Shown here: positions 39,543 to 41,270 of the stretch, one piece after another
Position numbering within the stretch: position 1 is the stretch's first letter
Layout of the letters: the number at the start of each line of letters is the position of its first letter
Source: Escherichia coli
GTDB lineage: Bacteria; Pseudomonadota; Gammaproteobacteria; Enterobacterales; Enterobacteriaceae
Assembly: GCF_041886205.1 (NCBI RefSeq)
Contig: NZ_CP169029.1
Length of the DNA: 64,000 nt
Reading direction: 5' to 3' (one strand)
Position numbers and translations under genes: made by a program
The notes under the pieces: model-generated
Told to the model about the DNA's origin: nothing
Database searches by the model: none
Seen by the model: the letters and a program-made list of their open reading frames with translations, nothing else

Positions 39543-39951
39543 TACGCCTCCTGCTTGTCACGGAGCTGCTGGAACTCGCAGCTCTGCGGAATAGTCAGAT
39601 GGCAGCCAATATTCACCGCCCAGGCTTCAACCTTACACAGGAAGACATACATCTCTCCGGTATCAAGATCGGAGGTATGGCGTAACGACTGGATAGTGGT
39701 GATATCACCGGTTACGACATCAACCAGGTCTTTGGTTTCATAACCGAGATATGTGTGTTTGAGAGCATCTTTTACCCAAGCTGGAGTGGCGAACGTTTTA
39801 CCCCTGCTGATGAGGTATTCACTGATTTCGCTGTACCACATGTGGCTGAGTGCATTCTGGGAAAGACTGCGTTTCTCACGCCACGGTTTAAGCACCATGA
39901 ACCGCCCCGGGAATCCTGGAGACTAAACTTCCTGAGAAAGAGGTAAACAGG

Positions 39952-40278
39952 ATGACTAAAAATACTCGTTTTTCCCCCGAAGTCCGTCAACGGGCAGTCC
40001 GTATGGTTCTGGAAAGTCAGAGCGAATATGACTCACAATGGGCGACAATTTGTTCCATTGCTCCAAAGATTGGCTGTACGCCGGAGACTCTGCGTGTCTG
40101 GGTTCGCCAGCATGAGCGGGATACCGGGGGCGGTGATGGAGGGCTCACCACCGCTGAACGTCAGCGTCTGAAAGAGCTGGAACGTGAAAATCGTGAACTG
40201 CGCCGCAGTAACGATATCCTTCGCCAGGCTTCCGCTTATTTTGCGAAGGCGGAGTTCGACCGCCTCTGGAAAAAATGA
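39952..40278 (+). CDS. IS3-family transposase OrfA (HTH and leucine zipper)
   Basis: 108 aa [19 protein letters not shown]..; ends at an A6 run (the usual -1 frameshift site) overlapping orfB. Confidence 0.85.
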
Positions 40279-41166
40279 TGCCACTGCTGGATAAGCTGCG
40301 TGAGCAGTACGGGGTCGGACCGCTATGCAGCGAACTGCATATTGCCCCGTCAACGTATTACCACTGTCAGCAACAGCGACATCATCCGGATAAACGCAGT
40401 GCCCGTGCGCAGCGCGATGACTGGCTGAAGAAAGAGATACAGCGCGTATACGATGAAAATCACAAGGTATACGGTGTGCGTAAAGTCTGGCGTCAGTTGT
40501 TACGGGAAGGTATCAGAGTGGCCAGATGCACTGTGGCACGTCTCATGGCGGTTATGGGACTTGCCGGTGTTCTCCGGGGTAAAAAGGTCCGTACGACCAT
40601 CAGCCGGAAAGCCGTTGCCGCAGGCGACCGCGTAAACCGTCAGTTCGTGGCAGAAACGACCTGACCAGCTGTGGGTGGCTGATTTTACTTACGTCAGCAC
40701 ATGGCGGGGCTTCGTCTATGTGGCGTTCATCATTGATGTGTTTGCCGGATACATCGTGGGGTGGCGGGTCTCATCGTCCATGGAAACGACATTCGTGCTG
40801 GATGCACTGGAGCAGGCGTTATGGGCCCGTCGACCGTCCGGCACGGTCCATCACAGTGATAAAGGTTCTCAGTATGTATCGCTGGCCTACACACAGCGGC
40901 TTAAGGAAGCCGGATTACTGGCATCAACAGGAAGTACAGGCGACTCGTATGACAACGCGATGGCGGAGAGCATCAATGGTCTTTACAAAGCGGAGGTAAT
41001 ACACCGTAAGAGCTGGAAAAACCGTGCAGAAGTGGAACTGGCCACACTCACGTGGGTGGACTGGTATAACAATCGACGATTGCTGGAAAGGCTGGGCCAT
41101 ACTCCTCCGGCAGAAGCAGAAAAAGCTTATTATGCTTCCATCGGAAACGATGATCTGGCAGCCTGA
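40275..41166 (+). pseudogene. IS3-family transposase OrfB (DDE catalytic domain), split by a frameshift
   Basis: catalytic domain split into two ORFs (40275..40664, 40675..41166); an apparent extra A near 40653..40658 separates ..QFVAE from [13 protein letters not shown].. Confidence 0.65.
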
Positions 41167-41270
41167 GTTCACAGATAAAACACTCTCCAGGAAACCCGGG
41201 GCGGTTCACCATGCGAAAGCATTTGCCCTCCTCCAGATAAGGCTGGATCTGCCGACCGATAGCGGTGAAG

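Follow-up and report, generated by a model that had tools for sequence, protein, structure and literature searches.

Insertion of an IS629-type element into ybcN of a defective lambdoid prophage of Escherichia coli and a frameshift in its transposase gene

The window, the 64 kb stretch of Escherichia coli DNA analysed here, contains a prophage in which the ybcN gene lies in two pieces on either side of a transposase gene that is itself in two pieces. We asked how this arrangement arose and whether the intervening element can still move on its own. We hold with high confidence that ybcN, part of a defective lambdoid prophage, was interrupted at codon 34/35 by transposition of an IS629-type element, and that an extra A broke the element's transposase.

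The element was delimited by a repeat search and a script to 39898-41208. It is 1311 bp long and belongs to the IS629/IS1203 group of the IS3 family. Its boundaries and immediate flanks are as follows.

39898..41208, plus strand: IS629-type insertion sequence, 1311 bp, which is the canonical 1310 bp and one A
39898..39922, plus strand: left terminal inverted repeat (IRL), 25 nt, begins with TG, TGAACCGCCCCGGGAATCCTGGAGA
41184..41208, minus strand: right terminal inverted repeat (IRR), 25 nt
39895..39897, no strand: left copy of the target-site duplication CCA, present as a single CCA in the empty site of NZ_AP045833.1
41209..41211, no strand: right copy of the target-site duplication CCA, abutting IRR

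The two terminal repeats match at 23 of 25 positions (92% complementary) and have the outer bases TGAACC...GGTTCA. The terminal-repeat pattern was found at two places in the 64 kb window, both of them ends of this element, against an expectation of 0 from 100 shuffles. The length of 1311 bp and the imperfect TG...CA inverted repeats agree with the size and ends of the IS3 family (~1.2-1.55 kb), and CCA agrees with its target-site duplications of 3-5 bp. A flanking repeat of 3 bp has by itself a chance of 1/64; since the flanks abut in NZ_AP045833.1 with one CCA, the repeat is a genuine target-site duplication. Among the other IS629-type copies examined, five have duplications of 3 bp (CTA, ATT, CTT, AAC and TTC) and one has a duplication of 4 bp. 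The initial annotation had described a 1311 bp element with IS629/IS1203-type inverted repeats and a CCA duplication, and its coordinates and counts were all correct. As a separate observation, the otherwise intact 1310 bp copies in NZ_CP025859.1 and NZ_CP195973.1 are not flanked by matching 3 bp repeats (GAT/CAT and AGG/GTC, respectively), and their mismatched flanks suggest an IS-IS rearrangement or an adjacent deletion after insertion.

The best match of both flanks (25000-39897 and 41209-56000) was to E. coli wlxctx60 (NZ_AP045833.1), a strain obtained in Gifu from the faeces of a bear. In this record the two flank matches adjoin, sharing exactly 3 bp. With the element removed, the window aligned to NZ_AP045833.1 end-to-end over 62,687 bp, the differences being 15 substitutions and one indel. 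That one indel, at 51066, is T6 versus T7 between ybhH and ybhI; it could be a true difference, or one assembly could have called the homopolymer differently. The empty site reads ..CGCATGGTGC.. with a single CCA/TGG. In silico excision of the element together with one CCA yielded a minus-strand ORF of 456 nt with a GTG start, encoding 151 aa. The restored ORF is identical to ybcN of NZ_AP045833.1 (WP_001053035.1), which is annotated as intact there, and this bears out the earlier claim that excision restores a continuous frame of 151 aa. In the occupied site, the two parts of the gene are distributed as follows.

41209..41311, minus strand: 5′ part of ybcN, GTG start at 41311-41309, nt 1-103, that is, codons 1-34 and the first base of codon 35
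39542..39897, minus strand: 3′ part of ybcN with the left CCA, running from the final base of codon 35 through the stop

On the minus strand, the first base of the IS (T; A on that strand) and two target bases re-form the native ATG of Met34, in frame, at 39898-39896. Because this ATG is re-formed at the junction, the 118 aa C-terminal fragment of YbcN keeps a start and gene callers would be expected to list it as a separate ORF. The occupied junction was absent from 5426 complete E. coli genomes, and the exact left junction had no match in JGI metagenome contigs. An exact-product look-up of the 87 aa ORF that reads through from the N-terminus of YbcN into the IS found it not on record. Since the site in wlxctx60 is empty, the insertion postdates the divergence of these two nearly identical strains.

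To what family the interrupted gene belongs was examined with the restored protein. It scored 279 bits against NCBIfam PRK09741 (NF007281; cut-off 164) over residues 1-151 of 151, and it matched PHROG 72, 'NinB/Orf recombination mediator', at 1.5e-52. With Pfam NinB (PF05772) the score was 22.3 bits (E 1.3e-4), below the gathering score of 23.8, and a phmmer comparison of YbcN with PDB chains gave no match, lambda Orf (1PC6) included. The YbcN of strain WP5-S18-ESBL-08, which PGAP names 'DNA base-flipping protein YbcN', is the same as the restored protein at 150 of 151 residues. Curtis et al. found that the YbcN of DLP12, though distant, truly belongs to the Orf family; its binding of ssDNA and SSB and its recombination-mediator activity were demonstrated biochemically, and the wider relationship between YbcN and Orf was drawn from PSI-BLAST, fold recognition and biochemistry (PMC4118853). 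Genes of the NinB/Orf type are located in the nin region upstream of a gene for a Holliday-junction resolvase, rap or rusA; here the resolvase gene is rusA, and the order ybcN-ninE-ybcO-rusA-ylcG-quuD is found both in the window and in the empty-site genome. YbcN here is a distant NinB/Orf relative, and by analogy with DLP12 YbcN it may have had a binding and mediator function. The initial label of 'NinB/Orf family' holds as a distant relationship, given PHROG 72 and the published work (PMC4118853), although the protein falls just under the Pfam NinB threshold. The present gene resembles DLP12 ybcN and orf151 of phage 82 in family and in its place upstream of ninE-ybcO-rusA (PMC4118853). It differs from DLP12 ybcN in that it is interrupted after nt 103 and that its prophage is at att-lambda and not at the DLP12 site.

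The host locus is a lambdoid prophage at ~26300-45600, defective and mosaic, which occupies att-lambda with ybhB/bioA on one side and ybhC on the other. Its DLP12-type genes are ren, emrE, the run ybcN-ninE-ybcO-rusA-ylcG-quuD and essD-rrrD-rzpD; it also contains Rac-type trkG/ynaK, truncated O, P, tail and lom genes, and a diguanylate cyclase gene at one end. At 41402-41557 on the minus strand, only the first ~50 codons of a ybcK-type serine recombinase gene are left, fused to unrelated sequence. The remainder of ybcK is deleted, as are the genes that separate it from ybcN in other genomes. The wlxctx60 genome has the same truncation, annotated there as 'missing C-terminus'. The prophage also contains an intact porin gene of the nmpC/ompC type (36853-37935, 360 aa), named ompC by PGAP in wlxctx60. 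Its counterpart in the DLP12 prophage of K-12, nmpC, is presumably interrupted by IS5.

Elements of the IS629 type are found near ybcN in other genomes as well. In several genomes their position is directly upstream of ybcN or in the interval from ninE to ybcN; another copy lies ~340 bp upstream of ybcN, and yet another farther upstream in the recombinase gene. Seven E. coli matches that seemed collinear with the window were rejected: ybcN is intact in them and the IS629-type element is adjacent or farther upstream. ENA metagenome contigs, which were the only finds of a look-up with the 118 aa C-terminal fragment of YbcN, have the same ybcN allele disrupted by an IS1203-type insertion of independent origin, ~47 bp upstream at the equivalent of ~41256/41257. 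These contigs break within the IS, and the present insertion site is uninterrupted in them. Together, these cases suggest that the nin region has been struck repeatedly by IS629-type elements. In O157, 62% of the IS629 copies are in prophages (PMC3271280), and insertions in or near ybcN fit this known bias of IS629 for prophage DNA.

We then turn to the coding capacity of the element, whose internal features are listed here.

39952..40278, plus strand: orfA, 108 aa, with an HTH_Tnp_1 DNA-binding domain, intact
40233..40349, plus strand: ALIL pseudoknot (Rfam RF01497), 120.2 bits against a gathering score of 50, E 3.6e-32, intact
40270..40275, plus strand: A6 slippery run, the programmed -1 frameshift site in the orfA/orfB overlap, ..TGG AAA AAA TGA..
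40275..40664, plus strand: 5′ part of orfB, 129 aa (127 native residues and TT), with HTH_21, ending ..QFVAETT before the stop
40654..40656, plus strand: AAA run with one extra A (AA in intact copies), a disabling +1 frameshift
40662-40664, plus strand: premature stop TGA in orfB, upstream of the rve domain
40657..41166, plus strand: 3′ part of orfB in the displaced frame, with the whole rve/DDE catalytic core, ending ...LAA before the stop

As in other IS3-family elements, orfA and orfB overlap in 0/-1 phase, with an A-rich run and a downstream RNA structure. A repaired OrfAB fusion of 404 aa, rebuilt at the A6 run, scored 365 bits against NCBIfam transpos_IS3 (cut-off 160). The element was 95-96% identical (distance ~3.8%) to copies labelled 'IS3-like element IS1203 family' by PGAP, and 95% identical (distance ~5%) to the copy on a pO157-like plasmid. 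The transpos_IS3 score and the 96% identity to the PGAP IS1203-family copies are in line with the earlier assignment to the IS3 family and the IS629/IS1203 type. Matches to the element occur at 31,124 places in 4263 of the 5426 E. coli genomes and in 3392 of the 72,556 plasmids searched (Escherichia, Shigella, Salmonella and others). Copies at ≥99% identity are in at least 1254 E. coli records and at least 540 plasmid records, the best being 99.9% identical and 1310 bp long. Judged from these distances, the element appears to be of the IS629 type and would fit the 'sub-type II, Shigella-like' IS629 of PMC3271280; the name IS629, as opposed to the isoforms IS1203 and IS3411, rests on how PGAP labels relatives at 96% identity and on the distances published for the subtypes. 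With the IS629/IS1203/IS3411 group of Shigella sonnei and E. coli it shares the basic length of 1310 bp, the 25 nt TG...CA repeats, 3 bp duplications, an orfA of 108 aa and an orfB of 296 aa in 0/-1 phase, the A6 run and the ALIL pseudoknot. It is likewise 99.9% identical to a copy present in thousands of E. coli, Shigella and Salmonella replicons, and it shares the preference of the group for prophages (PMC3271280). What sets it apart from the canonical group is the extra A at 40654-40656, which splits orfB ahead of the DDE domain.

Alignment to the intact 1310 bp copy in NZ_CP025859.1 revealed this extra A (GCAGAA[A]CGACC) as the sole difference. The NZ_CP025859.1 copy is annotated by PGAP as 'IS3 family transposase, programmed frameshift', and copies that differ by the extra A alone are given as 'programmed frameshift' with a two-part joined CDS. 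The initial annotation had placed a split in orfB at 40653..40658 and attributed it to one extra A, and the one-base difference from NZ_CP025859.1 confirms this. It had also raised the possibility that a split orfB is native to the reference elements. In every examined copy that PGAP annotates as an intact transposase, the run is AA and orfB is an uninterrupted frame of 296 aa. Since the native orfB is uninterrupted in the reference copies, the present copy is defective. The intact OrfB of 296 aa has HTH_21 followed by rve at residues 127-223. The frameshift falls after orfB codon 127, right at the start of the rve/DDE domain, and the downstream orfB ORF (40675-41166, 163 aa) has rve at fragment residues 2-90. 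HTH_Tnp_1, HTH_21 and rve are all encoded in the element, with rve out of frame in the present copy.

The distribution of the extra A was examined with an 81 bp probe around the AAA, which matched 20,879 places in 5168 E. coli records. Exact matches to the AAA-carrying probe were found in only two of these records, NZ_CP032813.1, where the copy is in traI, and NZ_CP104647.1, where it is in an integrase gene. Both have the same AAA at the same run and are called 'frameshifted' by PGAP. Unlike the present copy, they are of the IS1203 type, 95-96% identical to it, and have further indels or an internal rearrangement. A common lineage with these two copies was rejected on account of their other sequence type, many other lesions and unrelated sites; because of their IS1203 type and several lesions, we take the AAA in them to be independent events. 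An exact copy of the 1311 bp element was found neither among the 5426 complete E. coli genomes nor among the 72,556 plasmids, and an exact-product look-up of the truncated OrfB of 129 aa in an index of 153 billion genes found it absent.

An autonomous copy has a transposase frame that is uninterrupted apart from the programmed frameshift, and here that frame stops at 40662-40664. Since the frameshift takes out the entire rve/DDE domain, we infer that the present copy is non-autonomous and makes no transposase of its own. The loss of this domain supports the earlier suggestion that the copy is probably not autonomously mobile. Its remaining products can be OrfA and a truncated OrfAB of ~237 aa that has an HTH, a leucine zipper and HTH_21 and is without the catalytic core. 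Because both inverted repeats are intact, the element should be mobilisable or excisable in trans by the transposase of another IS629 copy. Disabled IS629/IS1203v derivatives respond to transposase from a second plasmid, and this includes excision (bioRxiv 10.1101/2023.06.07.543989). One may speculate that the catalytically empty OrfAB binds the ends of IS629 and acts as a dominant-negative brake on other IS629 copies, or that the defective element spreads in trans, but we give either idea little credence.

We considered whether the insertion is real but its extra A arose in sequencing or assembly, in which case the true element would be an intact, autonomous IS629 of 1310 bp. The extra A is the sole difference from the master copy and lies in a short homopolymer, neither an exact 1311 bp copy nor the 129 aa product is on record in the collections searched, and consensus polishing most often fails in repeated elements. 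However, the change from AA to AAA is short for a typical homopolymer error, and frameshifted IS629-type copies are common in nature. Moreover, an assembly with one indel in 62.7 kb of flanks relative to a near-isogenic genome is not error-prone. Since there is only this one indel relative to wlxctx60, a real mutation is favored, and we regard an artefact as unlikely, though it has the best standing among the alternatives to the account proposed here.

If the extra A is a real mutation, it could have preceded the insertion. An already defective IS629 would then have been mobilised in trans by an intact copy at another place in the genome, and the present copy would belong to a non-autonomous derivative that is spreading. 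The intact inverted repeats would allow this, and disabled derivatives do respond in trans (bioRxiv 10.1101/2023.06.07.543989). Yet no other copy of the element's subtype has the extra A, the two AAA records being of the IS1203 type, and a mutation that followed the insertion explains the data more simply. A further argument against mobilisation of a defective copy is the preference of IS3-family transposases for acting in cis. We consider this order of events quite improbable and favor a frameshift that arose after the insertion.

We propose that the insertion followed the pathway of the IS3 family, whose members have orfA and orfB in 0/-1 phase and a DDE domain in orfB and transpose by copy-out-paste-in (bioRxiv 10.1101/2023.06.07.543989). 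OrfAB would have been made through -1 frameshifting on the A6 run, aided by the ALIL pseudoknot, and would have yielded a circular copy of the IS by copy-out-paste-in. Pasting of this circle into a 3 bp staggered cut would have produced the CCA duplication. After its arrival, the copy would have lost transposase production through the extra A. The insertion is very recent, since a genome with 16 differences in 62.7 kb of flanks has the empty site and the element equals the master copy except for one base.

The reverse direction would make the IS ancestral, with the wlxctx60 lineage having lost it through precise excision, perhaps with the help of IEE. For IS629, such excision has been documented as dependent on transposase and as restoring the target gene (bioRxiv 10.1101/2023.06.07.543989; PMC9397093), and a single CCA is what is left in wlxctx60. 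On the other hand, none of the 5426 complete E. coli genomes has the junction, while intact ybcN is common; excision would be inefficient for a copy whose transposase is dead; and the near-identity to the master copy points to a recent arrival. Excision is thus very improbable, and parsimony argues for insertion as the direction of change.

The element also lies in the same nin operon, upstream of rusA, as the IS2 and IS10 insertions of the K-12 rus suppressors, which bring an outward promoter and activate rusA (PMC1636454; PMC4118853). A consensus promoter scan of the minus strand of the present IS found nothing. Although rusA is three genes downstream of ybcN and IS629-type copies recur beside ybcN in other genomes, an adaptive insertion that activates this normally silent resolvase gene in the manner of IS2 or IS10 is hardly credible and unsupported, because the IS is antiparallel to ybcN-rusA, with its own promoter directed away from rusA, and no sigma-70-like site is directed outward from IRL.

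Instead, recent transposition of an IS629-type element has left ybcN inactivated, and transcription into ninE-ybcO-rusA is probably interrupted by a polar effect. The strain is a commensal-type E. coli, and since the prophage was already defective, the effect on the host is likely neutral. The element and its mechanism are known, and the event is an ordinary and well-understood one. It accounts for why ybcN and the transposase would both be called pseudogenes. Since none of the 5426 complete E. coli genomes carries the insertion, it can be used as a strain-specific marker among close relatives of the wlxctx60 lineage. It adds one more case of IS629 in the nin region of lambdoid prophages and, if the extra A is real, it shows how fast new IS copies decay.
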